A stretch of 63,212 bases of DNA, taken from IMG/VR virus record IMGVR_UViG_3300045988_149942; one strand, given 5' to 3'. The translations under genes and the position numbers were made by a program. The DNA comes from a virus. Shown one piece after another: positions 11,313-55,339 of the stretch. The stretch's first letter is position 1; every line of letters begins with the position of its first letter. The notes beneath the pieces are model-generated. The model did no database searches and was not told where the DNA came from. It saw only the letters and a program-made list of their open reading frames with translations.

Positions 11313-11750
11313 TTAGTTGCCGAGTGAATCGGCGGGAAATTCCCCGACAGGCTCGGGTTTGGCCTTGTATATGGGATTGGCGGCGTTCGTGAATCTTTTG
11401 TCAACGTAAATAGCGATTCCCGTGTTGGCCTCCCGGACGTAACCTTTGACGAGGATGTCATAAGCAGTTCCCTGCTGGACCTTGATGTCGAAGGTTTGAA
11501 GAAGCTGGCGTTCGAGACTGGCTTCGATAAGTGCCTGATCGACCGGAGAGACGTTGCGCGAGGCGACAATCTTGATCGAGTCAGTGTTGCAGACGAAAGC
11601 CTTGAACTCGGCGGAGATCGGAGTAGACTGGTTTGCGACCAGTCCTTCGACGTCGAGTTGATATTTGATGTCCGGCTTCTTATCGTTGCAGGACACGCCT
11701 GCAATGAGGACGGCGCACAACAGCGCCATCAGTGCGAAAATTTTCTTCAT
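11313..11750 (-). CDS. secreted lipoprotein (putative)
   Basis: MKKIFALMALLCAVLIAGVSC signal peptide with Cys; ORF 11313..11864 trimmed to ATG 11750. Confidence 0.65.
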   Translation of the reverse strand: MKKIFALMALLCAVLIAGVSCNDKKPDIKYQLDVEGLVANQSTPISAEFKAFVCNTDSIKIVASRNVSPVDQALIEASLERQLLQTFDIKVQQGTAYDILVKGYVREANTGIAIYVDKRFTNAANPIYKAKPEPVGEFPADSLGN

Positions 11751-11779
11751 GTCAAAAAACGTTTTGTGGTGGTGATAAG

Positions 11780-11862
11780 TGGTGGAGAAGATAGGAGTCG
11801 AACCTACTTTGGGGACGCCGAAATCTGATTTGTTTTTCCCGTACACCGTGTACACCTTCTCC
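11780..11862 (-). tRNA. tRNA-like gene with encoded CCA and irregular, expanded anticodon arm
   Basis: Acceptor GGAGAAG/CTTCTCC, D arm GTAC-ACGGT-GTAC, T arm GTAGG-TTCGACT-CCTAT, 3' ACCA; no 5-bp/7-nt anticodon arm can be drawn (best is GAAA/TTTC with an 11-nt loop). Confidence 0.5.
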
Positions 11863-21460: not shown

Positions 21461-24235
21461 TTACCAACCCCCCATCGAATTGAAGGCTCGATAGTAGTCA
21501 TCCATCGAGTATTCGGGCTCGGCCGCTTTTTTGAGCGTCGCCATGAGCTCAAATATCATTCGGTAAGCAATCGGGTCAAGGTCATCGGGTGAATAATTAT
21601 GCCTGCGTTTAAACGCTAATTTCGATATAAAGAAGTATTTGCCGTTCTCTTTCTGATCGCGCTTGAGGCACTCGGTGGCTTCGAGCACGAGCAGATCAAG
21701 TATGGGCATTTTGTCGTTCTTGCGGCCGTATTGAACCAACGTGGAGCCCGGTATATCGAAGCGTAGTCGCCCCATTCGAAGGTAGGCGCTAAGTTTGCCG
21801 AGTAGCTGATCGCGGAGGCATACATACTGCTCCATCTCGATCACGTTTCCGGCCGAGTCGTATTCTTTTATAGGTGTGCGGTTCGAGACGATTGCCACGA
21901 CACCGCGCATATAGTCCTCGAAGTAGTTACCAAGACCTCCGGCATCCACCGCAATGTGTTCGACCGGAATGTCGTACTCAGTCTTCAAGGCGCGGACCCA
22001 TTCCACTTTCTCTCGCGCGTCATCCGTATAGGTAGTTTCAACGCGATTGCAGGTGAGTCCCGTCCAAATATAAGCCTTGGTCGGGTCGGTGCCGTCGCCG
22101 ATGTCCACGGTCATGTATCGCTCCGTAGACGGCTCGAAGGGGTTCTGATTCGGGCCGGGGAACATGGCCTCGATGTGGCTTTGGTTTACCATTGCCTCTC
22201 CTTCGCCCATCTCGCCCCAGTAGCCGAATAGGAGCTTCATTCGTTCCGCCTCTCCGACGTTGAACAAGTTGGCTACATTTCCGCCCTGCGTCTGGAAGGT
22301 GAGGATTCGGTTATCCATGATGTTACCGGGGATAAACGTGAAGGTCTTGATGAAGCTGTCGGTGGTCAGACCTGCGGCCCGCATCTCAGCGGTCAACATG
22401 GACTCAAGGTCAATTCGGCTCTTGACTTCATCCGGCGTCTCGCCCCAGATGATGTCCTCCGGCTTGTCGCCGTTGACTACCATATACATGATCTTGCCGA
22501 CGCGCTCTGGGCGGACATAATTGTCGTCGCCGATATACCCGGCCGTCCGGAGCATTTTGGAACTCCAGTGCCAGCCGTTCGCGTTGAGGGTGCAGACCAT
22601 CTTCGGTTTCATACCGGAAGCGTCACGGTTTCGAGAGAACCAGTATTTCCAGATTTTGAAGGTGAAGTTGGTCAACTCGTCGATGGCGATGTAGGAGGCC
22701 TGCTTATTTTTCATCTTCTCCTGCGCCTCCTTCTCCTGAGAGTCGGATTGCAGGTTGATGTGAGTGAGCATGATGGAGCCCTGGTACTCAGGCCATGCAA
22801 AGGAGTAGTCGGAGGCCGAGTATTCGCATCCTTTCATTTCGGAATATATTCGTTTCGCATCCGAAAGAATACCACCCGCAGTACCTACTTCGACGAGCTC
22901 CTTTTTTATGATAAGGCCCGAATATCCGTATTTACCAATGCCTCTAAGTGCCTCTAACAGAATGCAATATGTATTATGAGTAACTACACACGCCTTCGAA
23001 GCGAGGTATAGCGAGTTTGGGTTGCTAACTGCGATGCACCTACACTGCTCTCGGCCGACTTTTTCCACCTTCACGATCCTGCGCGTCTTGGAAAACCTGC
23101 GTGCCTTCACCTTCGATGCTTTACGATCCAGCCGGAACAACTTTGCGTTGTCGGCAGTCTGTATATATAATACATAGGCGTTCTTGCACTCGATGCGCAC
23201 ACCGTCCTTCTTATACGAGGTCGCTTTTTGGGTAATCGTACACATACCGCCAAGAGACCATATCACCTCCTGAATATCTTCGGCCAGTTGCTTGGAGGTG
23301 GTGGTCAAGCCAACGTTTGTCCTTCTACTGTCAGCATATCCATCCGAGTCCATGAGGCCCTGAATCAAGGCAAAGCGATCCTCTACCGATGCCATCTTGT
23401 ACCGAGTGGGGATGAATTTCGTATGGGAATAGGAGCCATATAACCCGAGCTCTTTAATTCTCGCTAAAAGGTCATCATCATATATGGTGTAATGCCTTCC
23501 ATCCTTGGAATCATACAAGCGCTTGCTGTTGTTTTTTAAAAACTCAACAATTTCCGTATCCGTCGTCGTAGCGGTTATTTGTTTTTGGCTCGTAGTCATA
23601 CATCCATCGCCCAGTAAAAAACCGAGCATGTATGGATCAACAGGCAACTCCTCTATCTGATAGAACGCTACGGGTTCACATAGAGGCACGGCAATATGTT
23701 TGTTTGGCTTCTCGTCGAGGTGTTTTATAATGGCCGCGGTGTCCCATACTGAGCAATCCTCGTCTCGGCTCAGGCCATGCAACTTCGCCCTCTTGGATTG
23801 TTTTCTCATTTCGTAAACATTCCATAGGTGCTCGTAGGTGCAGTCAACGAAGGCGCCGTCGATAAAGTGTACCCTATATACATCCTGCTCGCCGAGCTCG
23901 TAAATGTTGACTACTCGCTGTTGGCCGCCGAAGGTGCTGGAGATGATGTCTCCGGGCTTGAGGTCGCCCATTTTGCGGAATCCAAACGGTGTTGCGATCT
24001 GAAAGCTATACGCATGGCCTTTGCCCGCTGATGCGGAGCCTCCCGTCCAAATGACATCCGCCTCGCAGATCTGGATCGCTTCCTGAAACCCGGCCTGGCC
24101 GATGATGTCTTTGTTGTCTCGCAGTTTGGCTCCGTTCACTTTTACCCATCCCTTTTTCTTAACCGTACTGAGTTCGCGCTCTACTTTTGGATAGAGCTGT
24201 ACGGGCTGTGTATTGGGATTTATACGAGTAAACAT
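21461..24235 (-). CDS. terL: terminase large subunit, interrupted by an intein
   Basis: 924 aa; Walker A GSASAGK split from TYCILLEAL by about 349 aa of Hint + LAGLIDADG sequence; C-terminal nuclease-type region. Confidence 0.9.
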   Translation of the reverse strand: MFTRINPNTQPVQLYPKVERELSTVKKKGWVKVNGAKLRDNKDIIGQAGFQEAIQICEADVIWTGGSASAGKGHAYSFQIATPFGFRKMGDLKPGDIISSTFGGQQRVVNIYELGEQDVYRVHFIDGAFVDCTYEHLWNVYEMRKQSKRAKLHGLSRDEDCSVWDTAAIIKHLDEKPNKHIAVPLCEPVAFYQIEELPVDPYMLGFLLGDGCMTTSQKQITATTTDTEIVEFLKNNSKRLYDSKDGRHYTIYDDDLLARIKELGLYGSYSHTKFIPTRYKMASVEDRFALIQGLMDSDGYADSRRTNVGLTTTSKQLAEDIQEVIWSLGGMCTITQKATSYKKDGVRIECKNAYVLYIQTADNAKLFRLDRKASKVKARRFSKTRRIVKVEKVGREQCRCIAVSNPNSLYLASKACVVTHNTYCILLEALRGIGKYGYSGLIIKKELVEVGTAGGILSDAKRIYSEMKGCEYSASDYSFAWPEYQGSIMLTHINLQSDSQEKEAQEKMKNKQASYIAIDELTNFTFKIWKYWFSRNRDASGMKPKMVCTLNANGWHWSSKMLRTAGYIGDDNYVRPERVGKIMYMVVNGDKPEDIIWGETPDEVKSRIDLESMLTAEMRAAGLTTDSFIKTFTFIPGNIMDNRILTFQTQGGNVANLFNVGEAERMKLLFGYWGEMGEGEAMVNQSHIEAMFPGPNQNPFEPSTERYMTVDIGDGTDPTKAYIWTGLTCNRVETTYTDDAREKVEWVRALKTEYDIPVEHIAVDAGGLGNYFEDYMRGVVAIVSNRTPIKEYDSAGNVIEMEQYVCLRDQLLGKLSAYLRMGRLRFDIPGSTLVQYGRKNDKMPILDLLVLEATECLKRDQKENGKYFFISKLAFKRRHNYSPDDLDPIAYRMIFELMATLKKAAEPEYSMDDYYRAFNSMGGW
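22973..24019 (-). mobile_element. intein with LAGLIDADG homing endonuclease in the terL P-loop (N-boundary G73 or S77)
   Basis: LGFLLGDGC and LIQGLMDSDGY motifs; block B TYEHLW; block F RCIAV; C-terminus VVTHN followed by T. Confidence 0.8.
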
Positions 24236-36586: not shown

Positions 36587-37495
36587 ATGTTCATGCGAAT
36601 CATTTTAACGATCTGGCAGTTGCCGCAAGAGATCATCGGGGCGCTCTGGTGCCTCCTGTTTACGAACCACCGCGCGATCCTTCGACAGAACGGAGCTGTG
36701 TTCTTCGCATCGCCCAAAGTCAAAGGCGCATTCACAATGGGTTCGTTCGTTTTCCTGAACCCGAAATACATCACCAACGAGCCTACCTACGACCACGAGT
36801 TCGGCCATGTGTTGCAATCTCGGGCGTGGGGCTGGTTATGGTTGCTCGTATTCGCCATTCCAAGCGGGTTACACTGCTTGTTCCATAATCATGGGTCCTA
36901 CTACCACTTTTATACCGAACGCGACGCAAATCGCCGCGGAGGGGTCCCTAACTATACTGGCGGCGGCCGACATGACGAGCCGGGCTTGATTGCTACGACG
37001 CTGGCCGATCTGATAGCATGGAAGGCGAAGTATTTCGGGGTCCTGCTACTCTTCCTACTCGCGTCGTGTTGCCGCATGCCTTCGGCGTCTCTTCCCGAGC
37101 CCAGCGAAGACCGGGCCGACAGTACTCACACCGAGTATAAGGAGACGATCCGGTATGTTCGGGTCGAAGTCCCAGTTCCCGGCGAAGTACGAGAGATCAT
37201 CACGCCCGACACTGCGTCGCATCTTCGAACATCCGTAGCCGATAGCTGGGCCGGAATCCGGAACGGCATGCTCTGGCATAAACTCCAGAATCGGCAGGAT
37301 TCGCTTCCCAAGGCTGACATCCCGGTAATAGACACCAGCGAGAAAGAGGCTCGGATCGTTACAATAACGAAGCGAGAACCCTATGCCGTACTGACTCCGC
37401 TTACTCGGTGGCAAAAATTCAGGATGAATGTCGGAGGATGGGCATTACTGCTGATTTTACTGTTCCTCGCAAAAAAAATCATCAAAGTTTGGTAG
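36587..37495 (+). CDS. membrane protein with HExxH motif, internal lipobox-like segment and C-terminal TMD
   Basis: HEFGH at aa 70-74; VLLLFLLASCC at aa 152-162; C-terminal GGWALLLILLFLA. Confidence 0.6.
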   Translation: MFMRIILTIWQLPQEIIGALWCLLFTNHRAILRQNGAVFFASPKVKGAFTMGSFVFLNPKYITNEPTYDHEFGHVLQSRAWGWLWLLVFAIPSGLHCLFHNHGSYYHFYTERDANRRGGVPNYTGGGRHDEPGLIATTLADLIAWKAKYFGVLLLFLLASCCRMPSASLPEPSEDRADSTHTEYKETIRYVRVEVPVPGEVREIITPDTASHLRTSVADSWAGIRNGMLWHKLQNRQDSLPKADIPVIDTSEKEARIVTITKREPYAVLTPLTRWQKFRMNVGGWALLLILLFLAKKIIKVW

Positions 37496-37513
37496 GGGGG
37501 GGGTGTTTTTTTG

Positions 37514-37521
37514 TATATTTG
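37514..37521 (+). promoter_or_regulatory. -7 promoter box TATATTTG(CA)
   Basis: TAnnTTTG in the AT-rich gap after a G9/T7 tract. Confidence 0.45.
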
Positions 37522-37623: not shown

Positions 37624-37833
37624 ATGGCACAGATACATAGATCATTCTACTTCCAGCGAATGTGGAGTTGGCCCGTCAAGAAGGTCGAGCCCACTCCTCC
37701 TGAGCCGGAGGAGATAACTCTAAGTCCGAGTGCCCTGCATTTTACCGCAGAAGGTCAAATCAAAAATAGTCTGAACAATGGCAAAAGTAACAGTAACCGC
37801 CAACGACTCGTGGACCGTCTTGATCCCCGCTGA
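37624..37833 (+). CDS. BACON-array ORF A (leader + first beta-strand of a BACON domain)
   Basis: EEITLSPSALHFTAEGQ matches the BACON N-terminal strand; the ORF then runs out of frame over the start of ORF B. Confidence 0.45.
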   Translation: MAQIHRSFYFQRMWSWPVKKVEPTPPEPEEITLSPSALHFTAEGQIKNSLNNGKSNSNRQRLVDRLDPR

Positions 37834-38062
37834 GGCAACGTGGGTTCACTCCGACAAGATGTCGGGTGATGGCAACGGCGAAATCAACATCACCGTCGAT
37901 GTCAACCCCCGCGCTGACGCTCGTACCGCAACGGTAGCGGTCACTACGAAAGGTGGCGTTTCCAAGACCATCGTTATTTCGCAGGATTCGGCTGAATCGT
38001 CGCTGTCGCTCACCCCGAGCACGCTGGCATTCAACGCCGACGGAACTGCCAAAGCCGCGTAG
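37778..38062 (+). CDS. BACON-domain protein B
   Basis: VTVTANDSWTV..ATWVHS..SGDGNGEINITVDVNPRADARTATVAVTT...IVISQ, then LSLTPSTLAFNADGT. Confidence 0.7.
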   Translation: MAKVTVTANDSWTVLIPAEATWVHSDKMSGDGNGEINITVDVNPRADARTATVAVTTKGGVSKTIVISQDSAESSLSLTPSTLAFNADGTAKAA

Positions 38063-38064
38063 GT

Positions 38065-38352
38065 ATGGCAACGATCCAGCTCACAAGTCGTGTAGCGTGG
38101 AGCGTAAATTCCAAGCCGGATTGGGTTACCGTCACCCCCAGCAGTGGGGGTGGCGGTACCAAGTCCGTTGGAATTTCCGTGTCTGAAAACCTCACCAAGC
38201 AAGAGAGGACGGGAGAGGTACGCTTCTACAACGAGGACGGCTTCTACGAATCGCTCACGGTGACGCAGGATCGTTACAACGGCGTTGTTCTTGTTTACAA
38301 CGGAAAACTCCCCGTTTATGACGGGGCAAAAATAGTATTCAATGGAGATTAA
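38065..38352 (+). CDS. BACON-domain protein C
   Basis: IQLTSRVAWSVNSKPDWVTVTPSSGGGGTKSVGISVSENLTKQERTGEVRF...LTVTQ. Confidence 0.7.
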   Translation: MATIQLTSRVAWSVNSKPDWVTVTPSSGGGGTKSVGISVSENLTKQERTGEVRFYNEDGFYESLTVTQDRYNGVVLVYNGKLPVYDGAKIVFNGD

Positions 38353-39021: not shown

Positions 39022-41199
39022 ATGGCCGCAAGAGAAGAAAACATTCTGAACGTTCCCCTCTCCGAGACTCTCGAAGGGATGCACGTCCTTTGCGACACCG
39101 GAGATACGGGTGAGCCGTATCGTGTCGCCGCCAGCCTCTTTATTGCCGAGGCAACGCAGGCCGCGAAAGACGCGGTTTCCAACCTTGATCCCAAGGATGT
39201 AACCCTCAAGGGGTTCGCCGCACTTACGGCCGGAAAACCCGCGATCACCGCCAACTCTACGTTGTTGGCGGCCATTCAGTCGTTGTACGCGATGGTGGGC
39301 TCCGGCAAGGTCAAGGTCGTCAGCGATGGTGCCGACCAGACCGGAATGGTCTGCTGGAACGGGACATCGGCCAGCGGATTCGTCATCAACGTGAACGAAG
39401 CGGCCATCTACACCCGTTCGAAGTGGACGCAGTCCAACCCGGATTCCGTGACGGATGCTAACTGGATCGCCGCGGTTAAAACTGGCGGAACAAAGACTCC
39501 CTTCGCCGCCGCCGCGCAGAACCCAAACATGGGCGATCTTCCCACAAACAGCCGTCTCAAGTTCGTCGATAACAAGACCACAATCCTCGGTATGCTCAAG
39601 ATGCTGACTGCCGCCGCAAACGTGGGCCGCCTGCGTATCGTGTCCGGCAATCCCGCCACGGGAGCATCCGGGAAACCGGAGTTGGCCTTCATCGTTAATA
39701 TCGTTCAGGGAGCGAATGCCGAAACGCAGGGTACGAACGGTCTTCAGATTTTCCACCTGACCAACGACTACATCCGCGTCATTCCTTCGTCCAGTGTCGC
39801 TATGGCGTGGCCTACGCTCCAGACGTTGACCGACGAAGACGTCATCAAGAAGTTGAACTCCACTGCCTCTGGCGACTGGGGAGGGTTGGGCGTGAAGATG
39901 AACTGGAATCAATCCTCCATAGCCACGGTTGAAATCACCGATTTCGCAGTACCCGGTATAAATGTAACAAAGGACGGAGAAAGTTTCTTTATTTACGCCT
40001 CCAATCCGTCTCACCATCCTTATAATAACGATGATTCAACATCGTTTGTAGGGATAGCCGTCGCCAGCCCTATCTTTATATCGGGCGACCAACGGCTACT
40101 GTACTACATGGTTCTGGACACCCAAAAGGCGAGATTTTACACCGGATATGCAAACATGGAAGACGATTCGGTCACATGGTCTGACGGCACACAGACTCGC
40201 TTGGGCGGCGCAATACAAATTACCGCTTTCACCAAAGGCGCATTAAGTAGTCTGGTGTACGACTACAAACCCGGTGATTTCATACCGTTCTATACGAGGA
40301 ATGTAACTGCTTCGGCATCAAACCAGTTCCCTGAATCAGGCGTCTTCAATGGCTTTATATCCATGGGAAGCAACGAGGGCGATTATTTCCAGATATTCGC
40401 CTTTAAGACTGGTGCTGGCGGAAAAGCTTATTCAGGATCGTGTATTAGAAGCACTACCACTTGGACAAAACTTGGTGGCGGAGGCGGAGAACAAACAGTA
40501 ATATGGATCAATGCCAATCAAAACGTCTTCGATGTGGGCCTATATCCTTTCACTAAACTGGGTGAAATGTTCCCTATCTTCATTGACACATCAGCCACCA
40601 ATAATCCTTCTAAGGAAGGCTACCCTTGCGCGGGCACTGTTCAATGTGTAGGTTACCAAGGCCCAGAATCTTGGGAGGCGGTATTCGTAGTAGGTAGTGC
40701 CAACGAAGACCAAACTCCTCGCGGAGACTACTACAAGGCTCACCTGAGTTACGACATGGGGGGTTCTGCGTGGATCGAGCTAACGACGGGTAGCTCAAAT
40801 GAAATCTTCCCCGGCTGGAAACTGATTGTAAGTTCGTGGAGTAGCGCCGTAGGACCATCCGGAACGACTGGGATTATTCATTTCAATCAGGAGATACCCA
40901 CCACCTCGAAAATACTTATCGAAGCAACTATCCAGTCCTCTCCCGCTACAACGGCTATAATTAAGTTCCCGGTGCCTCTTACTATCGCGGGCATTAATGG
41001 AACCGGACAAGGAGTATTGTTTGAGATTTGCTCGAAGTATCTGGGCATTAACAGCACTCCGGGCAGTATCAAACTTATCTGTTCGTCGGTTATCACCGGA
41101 GCCAACGGGGTGCGAGGCATGAACGTTATTGTACAATCGAACAACTTATCAGACGCTTCGGATATTATCCAAATAAAAGGGATATATTTCAAAGCATAA
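39022..41199 (+). CDS. tail fibre / receptor-binding protein with exchangeable C-terminal tip
   Basis: ORF 38710..41199 trimmed to ATG 39022; 725 aa, Gly/Ser/Thr/Ala-rich; carries in-frame site S4. Confidence 0.7.
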   Translation: MAAREENILNVPLSETLEGMHVLCDTGDTGEPYRVAASLFIAEATQAAKDAVSNLDPKDVTLKGFAALTAGKPAITANSTLLAAIQSLYAMVGSGKVKVVSDGADQTGMVCWNGTSASGFVINVNEAAIYTRSKWTQSNPDSVTDANWIAAVKTGGTKTPFAAAAQNPNMGDLPTNSRLKFVDNKTTILGMLKMLTAAANVGRLRIVSGNPATGASGKPELAFIVNIVQGANAETQGTNGLQIFHLTNDYIRVIPSSSVAMAWPTLQTLTDEDVIKKLNSTASGDWGGLGVKMNWNQSSIATVEITDFAVPGINVTKDGESFFIYASNPSHHPYNNDDSTSFVGIAVASPIFISGDQRLLYYMVLDTQKARFYTGYANMEDDSVTWSDGTQTRLGGAIQITAFTKGALSSLVYDYKPGDFIPFYTRNVTASASNQFPESGVFNGFISMGSNEGDYFQIFAFKTGAGGKAYSGSCIRSTTTWTKLGGGGGEQTVIWINANQNVFDVGLYPFTKLGEMFPIFIDTSATNNPSKEGYPCAGTVQCVGYQGPESWEAVFVVGSANEDQTPRGDYYKAHLSYDMGGSAWIELTTGSSNEIFPGWKLIVSSWSSAVGPSGTTGIIHFNQEIPTTSKILIEATIQSSPATTAIIKFPVPLTIAGINGTGQGVLFEICSKYLGINSTPGSIKLICSSVITGANGVRGMNVIVQSNNLSDASDIIQIKGIYFKA
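40783..40801 (+). repeat. recombination-site candidate S4 (core ACGGGTAGCTC 40786-40796, read T-G-S-S)
   Basis: 11/11 core identity with S1, S2 and S3. Confidence 0.6.
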
Positions 41200-41206
41200 T
41201 AATAGT

Positions 41207-41230
41207 AAAGCCCCTCTAATGAGGGGCTTT
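41207..41230. terminator. Bidirectional hairpin terminator AAAGCCCCTC-taat-GAGGGGCTTT
   Basis: Perfect 10-bp stem with A/T flanks between convergent ORFs; same stem as at 47349. Confidence 0.75.
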
Positions 41231-41233
41231 CAT

Positions 41234-41671
41234 TTACAGCGCCTTGGATAGCCTATATATGCCTACGACATGGAATGCTTCTATGATAGTATCCATCTCT
41301 CCGGTAGCCTCCATCGAAAGTATCGTATCCGACGCCGACAGCATTAAGTTGAAGCCGGATATGATGGATACACCTCCGGTGGCCGACGAGTAATCGAATG
41401 CCTCCACTGTAACATCGTATGTGCCAGATGTGGCGGTCCAAATGATACTGCGACCTCCTTGGGGGCCTACCATAGTGTGATCGTCGGATATAAAATCGTA
41501 TACAATCATCAGCAAGTCGCCGTCGTGCACTTCACCACCCAAGTTGAATGTTTCCGGCGCGGCGTTAGCCAAGGCTATGTCGCCTACGAATAGTTGTTCT
41601 GTTCCACTTGAGCTACCCGTGATTTGATATATGATGCTTAGTGATGACCTCGCGATTCGCGACTCCATCAT
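41234..41671 (-). CDS. tail-fibre tip cassette 1 (silent/alternative copy with 16-codon leader)
   Basis: MMESRIARSSLSIIYQ-ITGSS-...VGIYRLSKAL; site S1 is in frame. Confidence 0.55.
   Translation of the reverse strand: MMESRIARSSLSIIYQITGSSSGTEQLFVGDIALANAAPETFNLGGEVHDGDLLMIVYDFISDDHTMVGPQGGRSIIWTATSGTYDVTVEAFDYSSATGGVSIISGFNLMLSASDTILSMEATGEMDTIIEAFHVVGIYRLSKAL
41605..41624 (-). repeat. recombination-site candidate S1 (inverted relative to S4)
   Basis: Sense strand CAAATCACGGGTAGCTCAAGTG. Confidence 0.6.
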
Positions 41672-41760
41672 AACGCAACGTAACTGCCTAACCCTCTCCC
41701 GAAACGGAGATTCATTTCGGCTATAATATCGTTATCGGAATACCGATAACGAATGATAGT

Positions 41761-41786
41761 AAAAAGGGACCCGTTGGAGTCCCTTT
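41761..41786 (-). terminator. Terminator after the tail-tip gene
   Basis: AAGGGAC...GTCCCTT stem + T5 on the minus strand. Confidence 0.6.
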
Positions 41787-41788
41787 CG

Positions 41789-44700
41789 CTATCGCATCAT
41801 GTGGTTGTAGAGCCAGTATTGTCCATCCCATAGAAACAGTGCGGCGTCTCCCAAACCTTCTCCAACGCTTGTTTCTAATGAAGCAGAACCTCTTAATATC
41901 CGTGCCCCATTTCCATTCACCTTAACATTGGCCGAATTATTGCGGCGCACGATAACAAAATTGCCCTCGGCTCCTCCCGGCACGACCGCTGGTAATGTTA
42001 TCGTTATTTCCGATGTATTATAACACGACACATACATCACGCTATGATCTATGGTCGTAGAGGCGCTAATCCTTAGTGTTTTGTAGGCCAAACCTGAAAC
42101 GTACCCATTCTCGATGCGTATTGCTTCGTTTTGTTGACCTCCTCTTACATCTATAAGAAGCCCGATGTTATATCCAAACATATTGTCATCCCTCCAACTC
42201 TCAAATCGAGCCATGCAGGTTGCACCCGTCGTTGCGGAGAACACGTTGGTTCCCATGAAAACGTTTACATCTACGATAGGGTTGGATGATTTTTCCGAGA
42301 ACTTGATAAACGAATCATACAACGACATCCCGTTGGTGGGATTAGGGTCATTTGGATCGGATATACTTCCTATACGCCCACTCCCTATTTGGAATCCGCC
42401 TATCGAGCCGCTTTCGGCTACTATTTCTCCTTTAATTTCAGCCTCACTGGATATTAACTTGCCTCCCTCCAGAATCTTCGTCGGCGCATCGTACCGCTCC
42501 GAGAACGGCTTTCCAGCCCAGAACCGAATCTGACCCTCGCTGGCCGCCACACCAGAGGGCACGGCGGCATCATCCGCCGTCATGCCGACCAGTACGCTCT
42601 CAACCTTGGTCTCCGATCCCACACCGATGTACCCCTGAGCGATGAAGCTACCCTGAAAGTATGCCTCCTCTGCCGCGGCCCGGATTACGTCTCCAACGAA
42701 GGAGAGCTCGTTCTTGCCGTCGGCGAGAGACTCGTACTTGAGGTACTTGGTGCGCTCTCGGTTGCCGACGTAGAGGTTGCCGAAGACCTCGGCCCACGTC
42801 TTGCCTTCGATCCGGCCGAGGTTGATGCTGTCCTTGGCTGTAAGGTTGTAGCCAGTGATGTCATCGAGCCATGTCATCAGAGCACCGCCTTCTCGGGAAA
42901 CATCTATGACTATGGCCGACTGCCGCGATGTATCGGTCGGGTTTCCAAGTTGAACTACGTTATCTCCGGCATGCGGCTCGTCGCTATTGGTGGCCGCATC
43001 GGTCTTGGAAAGGTCGATATAGTTGATACCTATGCCGACAACCTTGCGCCAGTAGAAGATGTTCTCCAGCGTCGATTCGTCGATGTCGCCGATCATCTGG
43101 GAATAGGCTTGATCGCCGACCACAAACTCATTCGTCTGCTTTCCGTCGGTCTGCTCCAGATAGCATCGCCATGCCTCTCCGATGTCCTCAACTTCCGAAA
43201 TAGTTCCGGAGGCACTGGTCAACACCTGCTTGCCGCCTATCGCTGTTATCTGATTGATAACGATTTCGTTCACGTTCATCTTGCGACGAACGAAGAGGTG
43301 ATCTACCTCTAATACAGAGCTACCGTCCGGGTTCTTGTACATCCCCCACCCAGAGCCCCCGAAGCCTCCTTGCCGGAAGTTGTCGCTCATGGTCGTGTCG
43401 GCGAATGTAACCTCGGCCGTAAAGTGCGTCGGAGAGTACGAGCGGGCCGCAATTCCATCCTTGCGCAGAAACAGCGTTTCGAACGTTTTGGCGGCCTCAG
43501 CAACGATTTGGGAGGATGACATGATGTTGGAGCTAAGGCGCCGAATTTCGCCTTGTATGGCCGACGTAGAGGTCTTACTCGCTACCATCTCCTCCGACAC
43601 CGTGATAGTCCATTCGGGGAGGAGTTTGCCCTCCTTATAGGCAATGGTCAGGTTATTGATATACAGCACCAGATCGGTCTCGCCGATAAGTTGGTTGTTG
43701 TGTAATCGTATCTTCGTTCCCGGCCGGAGCTTCTCGCGCTCTTCAAAACTTTCGCAGAATATCGCGCTCGGCTTGGCGGAGAAGGTTGGATTCTCGTCAT
43801 CGACGCGATCCAGTTCCACTTCGAGGTAGTCCTGCAACTTATCCTCGGCCCACAACACATACTGATGGGGCATTTCGATGTTGATAAGGAAGAAGTGGTC
43901 TCCCGGCTTAGCGTTCTGCTTTGTGTTGGGGAGCATGAGGCCGGAGGCGCGAAGCTCGGCATCCGACTTGATAAGCGATAGCCGATACTTGGATTTCACT
44001 GTGATCGTGTTCCCTTCCTCGTCCACCGTTTCGATATGCTTGGAGTCATCCTCCCATATACACCAGTAGTCGCCAGTTTCAGGGTCTTTGGCCTCTGGGT
44101 TGCCGAGCGTCGGGTCTTTGGCGATAACAAATTCGTAGTCCTCTCCGGCCAGCAACCCGTCGGAGAACATGACCGTAGCCTCGCGCTGACCGATCTTCGG
44201 CCACCACACGTCTACGATAGAGCCAGTCTCGCCCCAAATATCCTTAATCCAGATGTCGAATACTTGACGGTATGGGCCAATTCCCTCAGCCGGAGCTACA
44301 CTGAACCTCCCGGTGGTAACCGCCATGTAGTAGTGCTGGTTGCTTCCGGGGTTGGTTGTGCACTTGAAAGATACAGATGTCCGGACTCGATACTTACCCA
44401 TCGGCAACTGAATCTCAAACTTACTCTTGCCTTCGTTCTGAACTTCACCTCTTGCATCAGTGTATTCCATATCAGTTAGCGCATTCAACGCTTTCGAGAA
44501 TACCACCTGATTGAACTCAGAGAGGACATACACATTCAGCTCAGCGTACTCCAAGTGATTGCTGTCGAACCATTTAGTATATCTTTCTACACCTCTTGGC
44601 ACGGTGCTCGTCTCCTTTCCGTATATGCTGAATGTAAGGGTAGGAAGCGTTGCCTTAACTTCCATCTCTTCACTGGTTACGGACTGGGTGAATAGCTTGT

Positions 44701-45967
44701 CATACACTACTGGGCCCCGCCGCGTGTCCATTCCCGGAAAATCAACTTTTATTTCCGTAGATTTATAGGCAAATTTGCCTTTTTCTTCGGCTTCCGCGTA
44801 GTTATCATTCGTCACCTCCTCGACCGCAATCACCTCGTCGGCCCGGCCAAGTGTGCCAAGCCATACATTCTGGATCGAAGGGTAAATCTCCTCGTTGTCT
44901 TCGAGCACCCCGACCCGAACGCCCCACTTCTCCTGCATCGGAGAGTCGGCATAGTCGGACGGGTACATCTGTCGCCCGGCCTTCATATCGGAGTAGCCGA
45001 GCATGTAGTACGGGTTGTTGCCTTCGGCCGGGTCCTTTCCGGCCGTAGCGTCATTCCAGCCTCGAACATAGTCGCGGTACGACTTCGGCATGAGGTTGGA
45101 GTAGTAGGATAGCTCGGTAATCGAGTTTGCATCGGGGTCTCCGACGAAGGCCCCGGCCGCACCCTTGAAGTAGCGGTAGGGGAGGTTCCGGGTCGAACCG
45201 CGGCCAATCAGCCGGGTGTAGATGTCCGTCTGGTCATTCACGCGCTGGATCGAAACCAGTCCGGTTCCGTCTGCGTTCGCCTCGTCCATCGGCACGTCGC
45301 CGTAATCGAAGATGTGCTCGATCTCGGGCGACGGGAAACCGACTTTAATGCTGATCTGGCCGTTGTCTTCTTCGATACTCCAGCGAACACCGTATAGCTC
45401 GTATAGCTGGGTCAGCACATCCCAGATCGTCGTCTTGTCAACACTCACGGTAGCCCGGAACGGATTTATCTCCATATCCGGGTTCAGAACCACCTTCCAA
45501 CGCGCTCCGTAGTAGTAAGCGAGGTTATCCCCCAACCGACCGACAAACTCCGTCAAATCGGCTAAAAATGCGAATTTCATGCCGATGGTCTGGAGCGTAC
45601 CGTCGGTGAGCTTGATTATATTCGAGAACGGGTAGAATTTGAGGTCCTCCCGCTCCGAAACGAAGGTGAGCGTGTATTTGTAGCGGAGCGACTTGAGGTC
45701 CTTGATCCCCGGCGGCGCATAGCTCTTGAGATGGTATGTCTCGCCGTTGTACACCACGGTCCAGTTCAAGTTGAATCCCGGCTCCTCTTCGGGACCGAAG
45801 TAGACATCCATCGTGATGACCGACTCCCCCATGTCAACCTCGTTGACCGTGAAGTTCGTGATCTCGATTTCGTTCGCCAAAAGATTAAAGGTGATGGCCT
45901 TGTTGTTGTAGAGCATCACCTTATTGTCGTAGACGAGTAGAGCGGGAACCAGCGACTTGATTATCAT
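41789..45967 (-). CDS. tail tip / baseplate hub protein (Tal-like, 1392 aa)
   Basis: Very long ORF directly downstream of a Dit-sized gene; typical siphovirus distal tail arrangement. Confidence 0.75.
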   Translation of the reverse strand: MIIKSLVPALLVYDNKVMLYNNKAITFNLLANEIEITNFTVNEVDMGESVITMDVYFGPEEEPGFNLNWTVVYNGETYHLKSYAPPGIKDLKSLRYKYTLTFVSEREDLKFYPFSNIIKLTDGTLQTIGMKFAFLADLTEFVGRLGDNLAYYYGARWKVVLNPDMEINPFRATVSVDKTTIWDVLTQLYELYGVRWSIEEDNGQISIKVGFPSPEIEHIFDYGDVPMDEANADGTGLVSIQRVNDQTDIYTRLIGRGSTRNLPYRYFKGAAGAFVGDPDANSITELSYYSNLMPKSYRDYVRGWNDATAGKDPAEGNNPYYMLGYSDMKAGRQMYPSDYADSPMQEKWGVRVGVLEDNEEIYPSIQNVWLGTLGRADEVIAVEEVTNDNYAEAEEKGKFAYKSTEIKVDFPGMDTRRGPVVYDKLFTQSVTSEEMEVKATLPTLTFSIYGKETSTVPRGVERYTKWFDSNHLEYAELNVYVLSEFNQVVFSKALNALTDMEYTDARGEVQNEGKSKFEIQLPMGKYRVRTSVSFKCTTNPGSNQHYYMAVTTGRFSVAPAEGIGPYRQVFDIWIKDIWGETGSIVDVWWPKIGQREATVMFSDGLLAGEDYEFVIAKDPTLGNPEAKDPETGDYWCIWEDDSKHIETVDEEGNTITVKSKYRLSLIKSDAELRASGLMLPNTKQNAKPGDHFFLINIEMPHQYVLWAEDKLQDYLEVELDRVDDENPTFSAKPSAIFCESFEEREKLRPGTKIRLHNNQLIGETDLVLYINNLTIAYKEGKLLPEWTITVSEEMVASKTSTSAIQGEIRRLSSNIMSSSQIVAEAAKTFETLFLRKDGIAARSYSPTHFTAEVTFADTTMSDNFRQGGFGGSGWGMYKNPDGSSVLEVDHLFVRRKMNVNEIVINQITAIGGKQVLTSASGTISEVEDIGEAWRCYLEQTDGKQTNEFVVGDQAYSQMIGDIDESTLENIFYWRKVVGIGINYIDLSKTDAATNSDEPHAGDNVVQLGNPTDTSRQSAIVIDVSREGGALMTWLDDITGYNLTAKDSINLGRIEGKTWAEVFGNLYVGNRERTKYLKYESLADGKNELSFVGDVIRAAAEEAYFQGSFIAQGYIGVGSETKVESVLVGMTADDAAVPSGVAASEGQIRFWAGKPFSERYDAPTKILEGGKLISSEAEIKGEIVAESGSIGGFQIGSGRIGSISDPNDPNPTNGMSLYDSFIKFSEKSSNPIVDVNVFMGTNVFSATTGATCMARFESWRDDNMFGYNIGLLIDVRGGQQNEAIRIENGYVSGLAYKTLRISASTTIDHSVMYVSCYNTSEITITLPAVVPGGAEGNFVIVRRNNSANVKVNGNGARILRGSASLETSVGEGLGDAALFLWDGQYWLYNHMMR

Positions 45968-46380
45968 GTTATATGGTAGTTAAAATCACACTTGTTAGGT
46001 TCGGCTACATAGAGCGTCAATTCGAAGATGAACGCGCCCTGCATGACCTGCACGATAGTCTCAGAGCCCGGCATCTTGGTCGGGTAGCCTACGATCTTCA
46101 CGCCTTTGTAAAGGTTATATATTGTGACCGGGAGAGCTTTCTTTACGTCGCCGTTCGTAGTGGGCTCGAAGAAGGAGTCCCATAGGGATCGGATCGCCGC
46201 GTTCATCGTTTCGAGCTCACCGAAGTAGAGTAGCTTCACGGTGTACTCGAAAGCCTTGTCTACGGTGTAGGGATATATCTTAACACCGTCGCGCTCCGGA
46301 TAGTCCTCCTCTTCGTAGGAACGCTTCTCCGGCGCGAGAATATCAGGGGATTCCATCAGGTGAAATCCCATCGTCTGCAT
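45964..46380 (-). CDS. distal tail protein (Dit-like, putative)
   Basis: ORF 45964..46494 trimmed to ATG 46380 (18 nt after the upstream stop); ATGA overlap with the Tal start. Confidence 0.5.
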   Translation of the reverse strand: MQTMGFHLMESPDILAPEKRSYEEEDYPERDGVKIYPYTVDKAFEYTVKLLYFGELETMNAAIRSLWDSFFEPTTNGDVKKALPVTIYNLYKGVKIVGYPTKMPGSETIVQVMQGAFIFELTLYVAEPNKCDFNYHIT

Positions 46381-46400
46381 ATCTCGAACCTCTCCGTCGG

Positions 46401-46925
46401 CTACTTGGTAGCGGAGGCGGCAATCCCTTGTGGCTTCCATTTCTTGCGCTTGATTCGTATGTTGCCTTTGAATACCGGGACGCAGTGTCCCCACTGGTAG
46501 ACGGTTACGGGCTTTACGGACTTGTTGTTGATCCTCACCGGGGAGTTGTCGAAGATGTCGAGGATCAGTATTGCGTTCGGTGCTACCTCGAATTTAAGGT
46601 TGCTCCCGTATGCAACATAGGCATGCACCACGGCCCACTCCTTAACCCGAACCGTCCCCTCGCAAAGCCAAAAAACATCGACTCCTTGAACGGCTTCGGT
46701 ATCTACCGTCTGCTGGACGAAGATACCAGCCACATTCAAGTCTTTCTTATCCCAGCACGTGCGAATCAACTCAACCGAAGGAAACCCGGAAAAAGTGCAC
46801 TCCTGAATCATAGTTTTGAAGTGATCGAAGAGCGCAGGGGTATCTTCCGTGAGCATCTGCTTGAAATGATCCTCACATATCCCGGCCGCATGAGCCTCCC
46901 GCGTCAGTGCTTTGATGATGTCCAT
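46401..46925 (-). CDS. hypothetical protein
   Basis: ORF 46401..46964 (TTG start) trimmed to ATG 46925. Confidence 0.55.
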   Translation of the reverse strand: MDIIKALTREAHAAGICEDHFKQMLTEDTPALFDHFKTMIQECTFSGFPSVELIRTCWDKKDLNVAGIFVQQTVDTEAVQGVDVFWLCEGTVRVKEWAVVHAYVAYGSNLKFEVAPNAILILDIFDNSPVRINNKSVKPVTVYQWGHCVPVFKGNIRIKRKKWKPQGIAASATK

Positions 46926-46963
46926 AACCGCTCCAAATATACGCAAAAAAAAAGCGTAAACCA

Positions 46964-46983
46964 AATCACGGGTAGCTCGGGTG
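46964..46983 (+). repeat. recombination-site candidate S3
   Basis: AATCACGGGTAGCTCGGGTG, 20/20 identical to inverted S2. Confidence 0.65.
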
Positions 46984-47342
46984 TAAAAAAGCTACCGGGG
47001 TTAGACGTGGTGCTCAACGAAAGCACTGCTGTCATCCCCTACGCATCTACCGAATTAGTGCCGTTATCGGCAGGTACCACATTATTGCTTTGTTTCGAAT
47101 TGGCCGATTCCGATGCTCGGTTTAGTCCGTGCGGAAATGTGGTTGTATATTATGATTTGCCTCCGGCGAACAATTTATGGGGAACGATTGCAGGATTCTT
47201 CGATAACGCAACCGGTTCTAATGGGTTCATCAACGCCCGGCGCCGTGGAGCAGGAATCTTTGATTTTCAATGTTTGAGCGCATTAGTAGACGGGTATCCA
47301 TCCCTCGAAGTGTACCTCAAGCATATCCTTATACTTGGATAG
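46965..47342 (+). other. startless tail-fibre tip cassette 3 (126 codons from ITGSS to stop)
   Basis: In-frame ITGSSGVKKLPG...EVYLKHILILG; the upstream part of ORF 46428..47342 is antisense to a real gene. Confidence 0.5.
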
Positions 47343-47348
47343 CAAAGC

Positions 47349-47374
47349 AAAGCCCCTCGTTTTGAGGGGCTTTT
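47349..47374. terminator. Bidirectional hairpin terminator AAAGCCCCTC-gtttt-GAGGGGCTTTT
   Basis: Same stem sequence as 41207-41230. Confidence 0.75.
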
Positions 47375-47377
47375 CAA

Positions 47378-47764
47378 TTACTTTCCTGAAATATTGTATA
47401 TTCCCGTTATAAGGTATTGAGGGCCATGAGTACTACCGCCCCAGGATGCAGCCGAAAATAAAAGAGCCTCCGACCCAGCTTCGGTTGTACTTTGATCAAG
47501 GAAAAGTCCATAATATTCACTCGGAGTGACGAAATTTTCTACTAATTCCAAGAACACATCATGCCCATATGCGTTTGGATTAATAATAGCTTGACCTGGA
47601 ACGTCTATACCTAAATAGGAGGTATTTTGTTTACGCCATGTGATCAACACTCTATCTGTTGCTTTGAGTGCTCTTGTAAGATTAATTTGTACTGGGTCCC
47701 CATTGCCCGCATCGGAGTCAACCATGACATAAGTTGCTTCCGTAGGAGTCCACAGTGCCTCCAT
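47378..47764 (-). CDS. tail-fibre tip cassette 2 (frame stays open upstream through ITGSS to 47788)
   Basis: L-ITGSS-GGG-MEALWTP...LITGIYNISGK. Confidence 0.55.
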   Translation of the reverse strand: MEALWTPTEATYVMVDSDAGNGDPVQINLTRALKATDRVLITWRKQNTSYLGIDVPGQAIINPNAYGHDVFLELVENFVTPSEYYGLFLDQSTTEAGSEALLFSAASWGGSTHGPQYLITGIYNISGK

Positions 47765-47769
47765 TCCTC

Positions 47770-47789
47770 CACCCGAGCTACCCGTGATT
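47770..47789 (-). repeat. recombination-site candidate S2
   Basis: Given strand CACCCGAGCTACCCGTGATT; overlaps the stop codon of 47788..48423. Confidence 0.65.
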
Positions 47790-48423
47790 AACTTATCTGT
47801 TCCAAAAAGACATCTTTGAGGCGCTCAAATCTGGTGGTACGACTTGGTCCGATACCGTTCAAAGTGGCGACCCTACGAGACGAGATCATGTCTACGTCTA
47901 CATCCTTGTAGTCGTTATACCAAACCCGATCCATCCTGATTAATACGCATAACTCCCTTGCTTCCGGCTCGGCTCTTCGATCCAGCCAATCGCACATTGC
48001 GGCCAACGATATAGGACTCCCATTCAGGTAGGACCTCTCATACGCTTCGACCAAGAATTTCGCCCTTTCGTATGACGGGATAGACGGAGGTCCGAACACT
48101 CCAATTTCGGCGTACAAATCTTTGTAGAAGAGGAATCTGTGGTACTCAAACATCGTGACAATATTAACCCCGGCCTTTCCCGTAGCGGCCAGCCAGATGG
48201 GATCAATCAATATCAGCGGAATGTTTTCGAGACGCTTAACCAGTTCCGGATCGCACATACACTCAATCGTGAGTTTACACCCCGGCGACGACTGATTTTC
48301 GAACCACTTTGCGAAGTCGCCGAAGGTATGGTGGTCATGCTCCTTCCACTTCGCTTGGGCGTAGTCGATCTCTCTGTTGAGGTCGCGGTTTTTGAACGCC
48401 CGCAGATAGTCAGTGCTTTTCAT
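47788..48423 (-). CDS. hypothetical protein
   Basis: 211-aa ORF. Confidence 0.65.
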   Translation of the reverse strand: MKSTDYLRAFKNRDLNREIDYAQAKWKEHDHHTFGDFAKWFENQSSPGCKLTIECMCDPELVKRLENIPLILIDPIWLAATGKAGVNIVTMFEYHRFLFYKDLYAEIGVFGPPSIPSYERAKFLVEAYERSYLNGSPISLAAMCDWLDRRAEPEARELCVLIRMDRVWYNDYKDVDVDMISSRRVATLNGIGPSRTTRFERLKDVFLEQIS

Positions 48424-48890: not shown

Positions 48891-49163
48891 CTACTTCACG
48901 GCGTCCTTCACCGCAGGCGAGAACTTGAACGACACGCGGTTCTGGGCCGGGATCGTGACCGACTTCCCTCGGCTCATGTCGTAGCCCTGACGCGCGGGGC
49001 ATGCCTTCACGCTGAACGTTCCGAAGCCCTTGAGGGAGACTTTCTCCCCGTTCTTGAGGGTCTCGACGATCTTGTCCATGAACGTCTCACACACCTTGTT
49101 CACGACGGTCTTGGTGATGCCCGTCTCTTCGGCGATCTTCGCCATCAATTCGCTTTTCTGCAT
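48891..49163 (-). CDS. hup: HU/IHF-family DNA-binding protein
   Basis: GFGTFSVKACPARQGYDMSRGKSVTIPAQNRVSFKFSPAVKDAV matches the HU arm signature; trimmed to ATG 49163. Confidence 0.8.
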   Translation of the reverse strand: MQKSELMAKIAEETGITKTVVNKVCETFMDKIVETLKNGEKVSLKGFGTFSVKACPARQGYDMSRGKSVTIPAQNRVSFKFSPAVKDAVK

Positions 49164-49270
49164 TTTCGTTTTGATTTTTAAGTTGATAGAGTTTTTCTTC
49201 AAGGGCCTCTATTTTACCCATGCAGTAGTATATCAGGGCTCCCATTATGATAAGCAAAGAGAGCCAAAGT

Positions 49271-50815: not shown

Positions 50816-51124
50816 TCATAGCTCTCCTATCGTTTTAGCGATGTCTACAACATCACCGATATTATCTTTGGCCATTTTGAGCCCGTAATGAGCGATAACG
50901 CCCGACAAGAGGATGGCGGTTCCGATCCGGAAGTCGTACCCGTCGTTCGCCCACTCCTTGGTCTCGTTTAGTTCCTCTTCGGTCTTGATCTGGGCGACCG
51001 GGACCGGGTTCGGGTAGCCTTCCAACGCCACGAATACCGGACTGATGTTCGCCTCAACCACATACCAGTGCTTGTTCTTGGTCCAGAACACCGTCTGGCC
51101 GATCTTAAATTTACTCTGCGTCAT
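50816..51124 (-). CDS. hypothetical protein
   Basis: 102-aa ORF. Confidence 0.55.
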   Translation of the reverse strand: MTQSKFKIGQTVFWTKNKHWYVVEANISPVFVALEGYPNPVPVAQIKTEEELNETKEWANDGYDFRIGTAILLSGVIAHYGLKMAKDNIGDVVDIAKTIGEL

Positions 51125-51833
51125 TGTATTCTAATACTCGTTTGACTGCAATTTTATGCCACTTTCCGCCGCGCGGCCGTTCGATTTCCACCTCGTTGAA
51201 GTGGTCGGCGATCTCGGCCAGCGACCAGCCCTTGCGCTGTAATGCGAGGGCGTACTTCTTTGCTTCGACCATGCGCGGGTCCACAACCCGGTTCTCGGCG
51301 ATCCGCTCCATCCGGCGAGCCAGTTGATCCGGAGACATCGGCCCGCGCTGGGGCCGCGGATTCCCGAGTCGCGTCACCCGGCGCCCGGCCTTGGAGATAA
51401 AGAAGCCCTGCTCCTTGAGTTGCTTCTTCCGGACGCCGAGCGCCGACTTTGTTCGGCCCGAGATAAGTTCGCGCTCTGTCTGAGCCAAGCCGATAGCGAG
51501 GCAAAAGGTGATCGTTGTCGCCTCGGGGTAGTCTATCGCCAGCAGATCGACCCCCGTATTGCGCAAATACAGCGCGTACTCCGCATCACGGGAGAGTCGA
51601 TCCAGTTTGGCGACGATCAAAGTTGCACCTTCACGCGCGGCTAATTCCATCGCGCGACGAAGGCCCGGTCGGTTCCGATCCTTTCCACTGCGAATGTCAC
51701 GGAACTCGCCGATATTCTGCCCGTGTGTCCGGGCAATATATTCGCGGCACTGATCGAGTTGGGCTTCCAGACCGAGGCCTGAACGCCCCTGCTCTTCGGT
51801 GCTCACGCGGGTGTAGATGCAATACTTTTTCAT
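51111..51833 (-). CDS. small serine recombinase (resolvase/invertase family)
   Basis: N-terminal YTRVSTEEQ catalytic Ser motif, DRLSRD, C-terminal HTH-like region; 240 aa. Confidence 0.85.
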   Translation of the reverse strand: MKKYCIYTRVSTEEQGRSGLGLEAQLDQCREYIARTHGQNIGEFRDIRSGKDRNRPGLRRAMELAAREGATLIVAKLDRLSRDAEYALYLRNTGVDLLAIDYPEATTITFCLAIGLAQTERELISGRTKSALGVRKKQLKEQGFFISKAGRRVTRLGNPRPQRGPMSPDQLARRMERIAENRVVDPRMVEAKKYALALQRKGWSLAEIADHFNEVEIERPRGGKWHKIAVKRVLEYNDAE

Positions 51834-55145: not shown

Positions 55146-55339
55146 TGTTTCAGTTTTTTGAATGGACCCGATTCGTTCTCTACATGGTCGATTCTGAACG
55201 GGTAGCCCTTCTTTCCGCTCCGTAAAAACCGAAGCCGGACGTTGTGGGTAGGGATCAGAAATACCGTGTCGTCTTCGATCTCGTTTACCCGCATCACTAC
55301 CTCGTCGGGTAGGTACATATATCTGTCTCCTATCTTCAT
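55142..55339 (-). CDS. hypothetical protein
   Basis: 65 aa; N-terminus MKIGDRYMY is paralogous to the next gene (MKIGDTYIH). Confidence 0.55.
   Translation of the reverse strand: MKIGDRYMYLPDEVVMRVNEIEDDTVFLIPTHNVRLRFLRSGKKGYPFRIDHVENESGPFKKLKQ

Follow-up and report, generated by a model that had tools for sequence, protein, structure and literature searches.

The 63,212-nucleotide virus record IMGVR_UViG_3300045988_149942 of IMG/VR, the whole of which we call the window, belongs to a human-gut Bacteroidales phage that carries four interchangeable tips for its tail fibre. We regard it as probable that the locus is a tail-fibre shufflon, a multiple-inversion system in which four tips serve one constant shaft. 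The features by which a shufflon is recognized are present: there are at least three short sites in both orientations, one expressed constant part is accompanied by in-frame silent cassettes without conserved start codons, and alternative arrangements exist whose breakpoints lie at the sites. The sites, their reading frames and the cassettes are plain in the window itself, and rearrangements bounded by the core of the site occur in more than 40 related genomes, including two near-clonal pairs that differ by an inversion.

Four sites and four tip cassettes

The core of the site, the 11-mer ACGGGTAGCTC, occurs in four exact copies in the window, in the orientation order +, -, +, - (S1 to S4; Table 1), and S3 and S4 together form a perfect 20-nt inverted repeat. 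At all four sites the core is read in the T-G-S-S frame, and a cassette of 124-137 codons follows. Matches to the extended 19-21-nt consensus are confined to these four positions in the window, where 0.09-0.20 would be expected by chance, and no shuffled sequence reached four matches. A candidate fifth site at 55198, with one mismatch in the core, was rejected, as the extended consensus does not match there. A scan of genome contigs with the 15-mer site returned single chance matches only, none of them like the window.

The information profile of 63 distinct site contexts extends the conservation from -8 to +19, as A.CWAAYS-ACGGGTAGCTC-RR.YG.AA. Positions +15/16 and +18/19 are kept despite the fact that the tips downstream are not homologous, and this retention across unrelated tips would mean that the constraint acts on the DNA and not on the protein. 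Inspection of the site for a dyad that would place the crossover revealed no convincing symmetry.

A preliminary description of this DNA, made from its letters alone, had pointed to the 11-mer in the fibre open reading frame (ORF) at 40786-40796 and to its reverse complement at 41610-41620 in the convergent ORF, each in frame as T-G-S-S. Both copies are as it gave them; it missed two further exact copies (46968-46978 and 47775-47785), which is half of the system. The distances to the stop codons that it put at about 135 and 125 codons are 137 and 128, and the hairpin that it placed between the two ORFs at 41207-41230 is real, with a 10-bp stem. Its x-G-I-Y-x ending is present in tips A and B, for which it was proposed, and in tip D as well, but is absent from tip C.

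As far as frames and start codons indicate, consistent expression is confined to S1 in the fibre gene, and S2, S3 and S4 head silent cassettes. Homologues of the shaft start with MAAREENILNVP. Tips A and B, like tips C and D, form a convergent pair split by a hairpin, and the perfect 10-bp terminator stem of these hairpins recurs between the tips of nearly every pair in 46 related loci, whatever the tip types. No U-like assembly gene was found in the cassettes; each consists of a tip domain alone. A 304-aa ORF that runs through S3 (46428..47342, +) was considered as a gene and rejected, since it lies antisense to g187, for which PHROG gives a match. The frame is antisense to g176 as well, is open in L010 too, and is of unusual length.

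Pairwise sequence comparison of the tips gave no significant similarity. The AlphaFold2 (AF2) model of tip B is all-beta with a predicted local distance difference test (pLDDT) score of 69.5, and Foldseek matches it to the C-terminal receptor-binding protein (RBP) domains of Staphylococcus phage K gp144 (5m9f) and of the phi812 baseplate (9euf_5), with a template modelling (TM) score of 0.61 and an E-value of 3e-4. Tip A is likewise modelled as all-beta, with a weak pLDDT of 56.8, and its top match is the same phi812 chain at a TM score of only 0.29; a fold assignment from this model was dropped because the model is too uncertain. A fold shared among the tips is thus only suggested by the models, and the receptor-binding role of the tips is putative. 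The junction region is modelled with poor confidence in both tips, which fits a linker.

Closing the window's arrangement in silico under the four possible inversions yields 16 isomers with four intact fibre ORFs, each of them present in four isomers. The predicted fibre isoforms have 725 aa with tip A, 716 with B, 712 with C and 723 with D, and the central block remains in the middle in every isomer. In the mechanism that we propose, the cassettes at S2 to S4 would be promoterless and start-less, each closed by its half of a shared bidirectional terminator. A site-specific recombinase would pair any two inverted sites (S1 with S2, S3 with S4, S2 with S3, or S1 with S4), and crossover within the core would keep the T-G-S-S frame in every product. 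Whichever cassette landed behind S1 would be translated together with the 588-aa shaft and supply the fibre with its C-terminal receptor-binding domain, and the 5.3-kb block between S2 and S3 would flip as a passenger. A phage population would then probably hold several receptor specificities at once, which would suit the phase-variable surface structures of Bacteroidales.

Rearrangements among related phages

The relatives that we compared are 16 from IMG/VR that share the fibre, 18 contigs with a 100%-identical recombinase and 24 human-gut metagenome contigs with the S1 junction, together more than 40 related gut-metagenome contigs. The fibre has 1,885 homologues at E<=1e-20, and a DNA search of the locus against the INPHARED phages gave no near match.

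Relative to the window, segment maps show tip pair 1 flipped in L013, L010, L008, L161 and L164, tip pair 2 flipped in L001 and L013, and the two tip pairs swapped between slots in L007, L034, L169 and L173. The central block is flipped in L002, L011, L165, L181 and others, which are roughly as many as the genomes in which it is unflipped. When flanks are tabulated against tips, tip A stands behind flanks F1-F4, tip B behind F1-F3, tip C behind F3 and F4, and tip D behind F2 and F4, and the breakpoint is always the core.

The same picture is obtained from the expressed end of the fibre. S1 in the 24 metagenome contigs joins the shaft to tip A (8 contigs), B (2), C (7), D (1) or other tips (5), and in public metagenomic proteins and contigs the shaft end GSAWIELT is fused to A, B, C, D, E or G. 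Fusions of the shaft to tip B are found in L012, L013, L161 and L164 and in the proteins P0004, P0006, P0008, P0009 and P0010, those to tip C in P0007, L162, L172, L173 and L178, and those to tip D in L169 and P0055. The metagenomic fusion proteins have the predicted length for B (716 aa) and for C (712 aa), and those with D are partial only. The preliminary description had proposed that inversion between S1 and S2 swaps the tip on a constant 588-aa shaft, and had advised a comparison of related genomes for both orientations. Both are found, and L013, L010, L008 and L161, with shaft and tip B joined at the core, together with the 716-aa proteins, bear the proposal out.

Two comparisons are close enough to isolate single events. 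L029 and L030, which come from different samples, agree over 14,066 bp at 99.986% and over 5,232 bp at 99.98% (19.3 kb with three mismatches), and between these flanks lies an inverted segment of 1,472 bp, itself 100% identical, with 25-bp inverted repeats that contain the core at both ends. The shafts of L165 and L169 are 99.19% identical as far as the core, where the expressed tip switches from A to D; a 670-bp tip A/B segment, 100% identical between the two, lies on the shaft in L165, whereas the L169 shaft carries D and the segment lies on the flank at the g187 side, and that side is 99.73% identical and inverted. Judged by their sequence identity, these two near-clonal pairs show that the inversion events are recent. 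At a somewhat greater distance, the central block is found in opposite orientations in genomes of 97-98% identity, whose inverted parts are as similar as their collinear ones.

A second shaft type, found in L003-L010, ends in ...WTELGGGSG and has a degenerate S1, GGCGGCGGCTC (for example at 11741-11800 of L005). The same junction nevertheless joins these shafts to tips A, B and C, and the other sites in these genomes are canonical. The fusions at the degenerate S1 suggest that the crossover lies in or just to the right of GCTC. At the shaft-tip junction of L008 (about 11735-11800) there is a short tandem duplication (...GGGSTNGTTTTRTELGGGSG...).

Rearranged tips are also found in new company. 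Across genomes the tips are paired as A+B, A+E, B+E, A+C and C+D, and at least seven tip families circulate, with about four in each genome. New pairings of tips are beyond the reach of inversion and must involve some exchange of single cassettes as well; the sequences suggest that the terminator is where these are exchanged. It is possible, and we put it forward only tentatively, that the tips form an integron-like cassette pool across the population, traded between co-infecting phages at the site and the terminator, with an enzyme from a widespread phage family of serine recombinases and with the 5.3-kb block as a tolerated passenger.

The recombinase

The window encodes one small serine recombinase, which lies 3.3 kb from S4 with more than seven genes between them. 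Its protein is 100% identical in the 18 related contigs, eight of which are also fibre-locus contigs. A Pfam scan of 39 window proteins gave no second recombinase and no tyrosine recombinase domain; the same scan found no integrase, and no prophage copy was found in the GTDB representative genomes. A search of these genomes with the recombinase gave no relative, and hence no prophage or host context.

Its classification is distinct from that of the known fibre invertases. Hin, Gin, Cin, Pin and Min have about 190 aa, with a serine catalytic domain followed by HTH_7, and in Hin/Gin systems the invertase is adjacent to its segment and works with a Fis-bound enhancer; the protein found here has 240 aa and a Resolvase domain without HTH_7, and is separated from S4 by the distance just given. 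Its best PDB match is the catalytic domain of TP901-1 integrase (6.6e-9), and Gin is matched only at 8e-7 over residues 44-137. In NCBIfam the protein matches the XisF, CcrB and IS607 types, each far under its cut-off, and the score for the Mpi family (NF009949) is 18.8 bits where the cut-off is 272. By these matches, the recombinase is neither of the Hin/Gin/Min type nor of the Mpi type, and its catalytic domain is closest to those of TP901-1, XisF and CcrB. From its conservation and its co-occurrence with the fibre loci, the phage's own 240-aa protein is most likely the enzyme that catalyses the inversions. Relatives also conserve the gene for an HU/IHF-like DNA-bending protein, which is situated between S4 and the recombinase; that this protein serves as an accessory factor for inversion is speculative.

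The central block and its flanks

The sites delimit three invertible blocks, namely the A/B tip pair, 5.3 kb of tail genes and the C/D tip pair. The nearest isolate homologues of the central block are in Parabacteroides phage PF672P1, at 38% amino acid identity. There the homologous genes are collinear with the gene for the tape measure protein, so that the window shows the flipped state of the block relative to that order. PF672P1 was itself considered as a shufflon carrier, because its large tail gene has, close to its end, a perfect inverted repeat of 15 nt, and was rejected, as there is no convergent ORF and the repeat is at chance frequency.

The block carries its own Bacteroidetes-type promoter, which abuts S3, and it ends at the S2 side in the F2 flank, a spacer with four tandem hairpins whose fold has a z-score of -6.35 and whose hairpin 1 is the terminator directly after the 1392-aa gene. 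With a promoter and tandem terminators of its own, the block should be able to flip with a neutral effect on expression. The F2 flank is 99.4% conserved in relatives, where its neighbours are at 92-96%, and an Rfam search of the locus, the F2 spacer included, found no family and sub-threshold chance matches only. The spacer probably insulates the silent cassette; it may be an array of insulators or terminators, or an accessory site for recombination. Conservation of the central block is higher at its two ends beside the sites (98-99% for g187, 99.4% for the F2 flank) than in its middle (92% for g176, 94-96% for the 1392-aa gene).

The promoter motif TTTG-N19-21-TAnnTTTG occurs nine times in the window against 0.47 expected, an excess that supports a Bacteroidota host. 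The S4 flank contains no start codon at all, and the F4 flank and F2b, a variant of the F2 flank, contain no conserved one.

Table 1. Coordinates of the sites, tips, terminators and associated genes in the window.
Feature	Position	Strand	Description
Site S1	40778..40804 (core 40786-40796)	+	In the fibre ORF; T-G-S-S in frame; conserved over about 27 bp with an invariant core
Site S2	41602..41628 (core 41610-41620)	-	Exact core; inside the convergent ORF 41234..41671 (-)
Site S3	46960..46986 (core 46968-46978)	+	Exact core; heads tip C
Site S4	47767..47793 (core 47775-47785)	-	Shares bases, in another frame, with the stop codon of the upstream 211-aa gene
Fibre ORF	39022..41199	+	725 aa; ATG start
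Shaft (constant fibre part)	39022..40785	+	588 aa, ending ...SAWIELT; left flank F1
Tip A	40797..41199	+	Now expressed; 137 aa from TGSS
Tip B	41234..41609	-	Silent; 128 aa from TGSS
Tip C	46979..47342	+	Silent; 124 aa from TGSS
Tip D	47378..47774	-	Silent; 135 aa from TGSS
Bidirectional terminator hairpin A/B	41207..41230		10-bp stem AAAGCCCCTC/GAGGGGCTTT
Bidirectional terminator hairpin C/D	47349..47373		Stem identical to that at 41207-41230
Invertible central block	41621..46967		5.3 kb between S2 and S3; both orientations in relatives
F2 flank	41621..41788	-	168-nt spacer with four tandem hairpins; incidental ATG leader inside
1392-aa tail protein gene	41789..45967	-	PHROG tail-related matches
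176-aa gene (g176)	45964..46494	-	Central block
g187 gene	~46401..46925	-	Central block; PHROG match
Bacteroidetes-type promoter	46934..46965	-	TTTG-N20-TATATTTG; abuts S3, upstream of g187, inside the central block
HU/IHF-like DNA-bending protein gene	48891..49202	-	NCBIfam HU-beta, E 1.2e-18; between recombinase and S4; conserved in relatives
Small serine recombinase gene	51111..51833	-	240 aa; Pfam Resolvase, E 5.9e-23; PHROG 125 'DNA invertase', E 5e-25

Alternative explanations

Several observations weigh against a shufflon worked by the phage itself. Within the strain a single arrangement is seen, as the three contigs that encode an identical 1392-aa protein all match the window. In genomes of the second shaft type, recombination still takes place at the remaining sites despite the degenerate S1, and the L029/L030 event, which belongs to such a genome, leaves the fibre unchanged. 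The tips lack significant mutual similarity, and the model of tip A is of low confidence (pLDDT 56.8). The C-terminal DNA-binding domain of the recombinase is not recognised, its gene lies 3.3 kb from the nearest site, and full-length homologues (31-39% identity), found also in PF672P2, are present in PF672P1 and in numerous phages of Escherichia (phiWec/Phapecoctavirus), Vibrio and Cellulophaga without an evident shufflon, from which the family may have another primary role.

These last points bear most directly on the question of the enzyme. The sites could be genuine and a host invertase of Bacteroidales could act on them, with the phage recombinase engaged, for example, in resolving replication multimers. 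The presence of recombinase homologues in phages without a detectable shufflon, the closest cultured relative included, would be accounted for in this way, as would the separation of the gene from the sites, and Bacteroidales genomes do encode many serine and tyrosine invertases (PMC9881135). We nevertheless consider a host enzyme unlikely. The phage recombinase is the sole one found, is a 100% conserved protein and is present in all eight contigs that span both loci, and a phage that relied on the enzyme of its host would lose switching at each change of host. The Mpi-family match is far under its cut-off (18.8 versus 272 bits), and the core has no resemblance to what we take to be the Mpi repeat. 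In a further alternative, switching would be neither programmed nor ongoing, and the arrangements would be evolutionary fossils of infrequent homologous recombination, or of modules traded between co-infecting phages, for which the motif served as a patch of homology. Most of our comparisons are indeed between genomes that are 2-8% apart, the exact strain is found in a single arrangement, and the re-assorted tip partners (A+B, A+E, B+E, A+C) need a process other than inversion. Against this stand the two near-clonal pairs, which at 99.2-100% identity differ by precise site-bounded inversions, and the site itself, as an invariant 11-bp core within 27 bp, amid unrelated coding sequence in 63 contexts, is not expected from homology-driven exchange. 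RecA-type recombination would have only very short repeats, of 20-25 bp, to work on, and the frame is kept at all four sites. We therefore hold fossil arrangements to be very improbable.

The remaining alternative concerns what is expressed. The F2 leader (MMESRIARSSLSIIYQ-ITGSS...) after the 1392-aa gene could be a second expression site, which would produce a free-standing tip protein of about 145 aa, so that two tail components would be set at once. An in-frame ATG lies 17 codons 5' of S2 in the window, the F2 flank is conserved at 99.4%, and the sole intact invertible pair of L007 lies directly behind this flank. The F2b variant in L003, L012, L028 and L030, however, lacks a start codon and meets an in-frame stop 2-6 codons upstream, the ATGs of the window fall within the fourth of the four strong hairpins that follow the terminator, and the leader ORF was not predicted by the gene caller. 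A second expression site appears to us, if anything, slightly less probable than fossil arrangements, and the view in the preliminary description that the short 16-codon ATG leader is incidental agrees with its absence in the F2b relatives and with the position of the window ATGs in a hairpin stem. A shufflon with a single expression site at S1 and a phage-encoded recombinase is the reading that we prefer.

Comparison with known inversion systems

The preliminary description had likened the locus to the G segment of phage Mu, and inversion in Mu G and P1 C (by Gin and Cin) does swap the variable C-terminal part of a fibre on a constant N-terminal part. The two-state framing did not survive the comparison, since there are four sites, four tips, three blocks and 16 isomers, no U-like gene is present, and the recombinase is distant and not of the Hin/Gin/Cin kind. 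Mu G and P1 C have two sites and two states, a second gene (U or U') for each orientation and a Fis-dependent Hin-family invertase beside the segment, none of which was found here. A hix/gix-type site consists of two imperfect inverted half-sites within 26 bp, and the consensus of the present site has no clear dyad. By inspection it shows no resemblance to what we presume to be the hix/gix consensus. The shufflon of plasmid R64, in which Rci acts on pilV, is alike in that multiple inversions choose one C-terminal segment for one adhesin gene, and it differs in its tyrosine recombinase, its 19-bp sfx sites and its role at the tip of a conjugative pilus; a tyrosine recombinase, which R64 and Rin have in common, was not found in the window, where the Pfam scan of the 39 proteins gave the serine type only.

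Closer likenesses are found among phages with several cassettes. Min of p15B (E. coli 15T-), according to the part of PMC6109161 that deals with it (citing Sandmeier et al. 1992), combines alternating crossover sites, silent in-frame C-terminal fibre cassettes, one constant N-terminal part and a serine recombinase, and gives many isomers. The present recombinase, in contrast, is neither of the Hin/Gin/Cin/Min type nor adjacent, the site is unrelated, the host phylum is Bacteroidota, and two cassette pairs are split by an invertible 5.3-kb block of tail genes. A shufflon in a BV01-like phage of Phocaeicola vulgatus (preprint PMC13596623, 2026) is also from Bacteroidales, phage-encoded and multi-cassette, overlaps the distal end of a fibre gene and is active in gut samples. 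It is built on a 10-bp motif, TGGGAGAACT, with three cassettes in 1.7 kb flanked by the recombinase and six isoforms, and its phage is temperate (PMC13596623); the window has another core of 11 bp, four cassettes in two pairs over 7 kb and a distant recombinase, and no integrase or prophage was found. In the Rin system of Bifidobacterium prophages, an 11-bp asymmetric repeat precedes each variable C-terminus of the RBP, there are several dissimilar cassettes, and inversions are seen between related genomes (PMC6109161), whereas the enzyme is a tyrosine recombinase that adjoins the cassettes and the carriers are prophages of Actinobacteria (PMC6109161).

A fibre switch with multiple inversions is therefore already known in kind, and what is new here is the site, the lineage of the recombinase, its distance from the sites and the split layout. 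In the searchable literature we found no report of this phage group or of its site.

Significance

Bacteroidales vary their capsules and surface proteins by means of invertible promoters. Four shuffled receptor-binding tips would be a direct counter-strategy to such variation of the host surface, and could help explain how these phages persist in the gut, where the lineage is common in human-gut assemblies. The locus would extend fibre switching by multiple inversion to a different lineage of serine recombinases, and indicates that essential tail genes, in a large block, can lie within a shufflon. A 27-bp site and a small recombinase could become a multi-state inversion tool for Bacteroides. 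For genomes of this group, annotation and host-prediction pipelines should expect several fibre isoforms per genome.

Other features of the window

Two small BACON-domain genes lie just 5' of the fibre gene (37778-38352, +), preceded by a Bacteroidetes-type promoter at 37488-37521. Elsewhere, beside the SPP1-type portal gene, a 924-aa ORF (21461-24235, -) contains LAGLIDADG_3 and Hom_end domains, and by this domain content is possibly an intein-containing large terminase.

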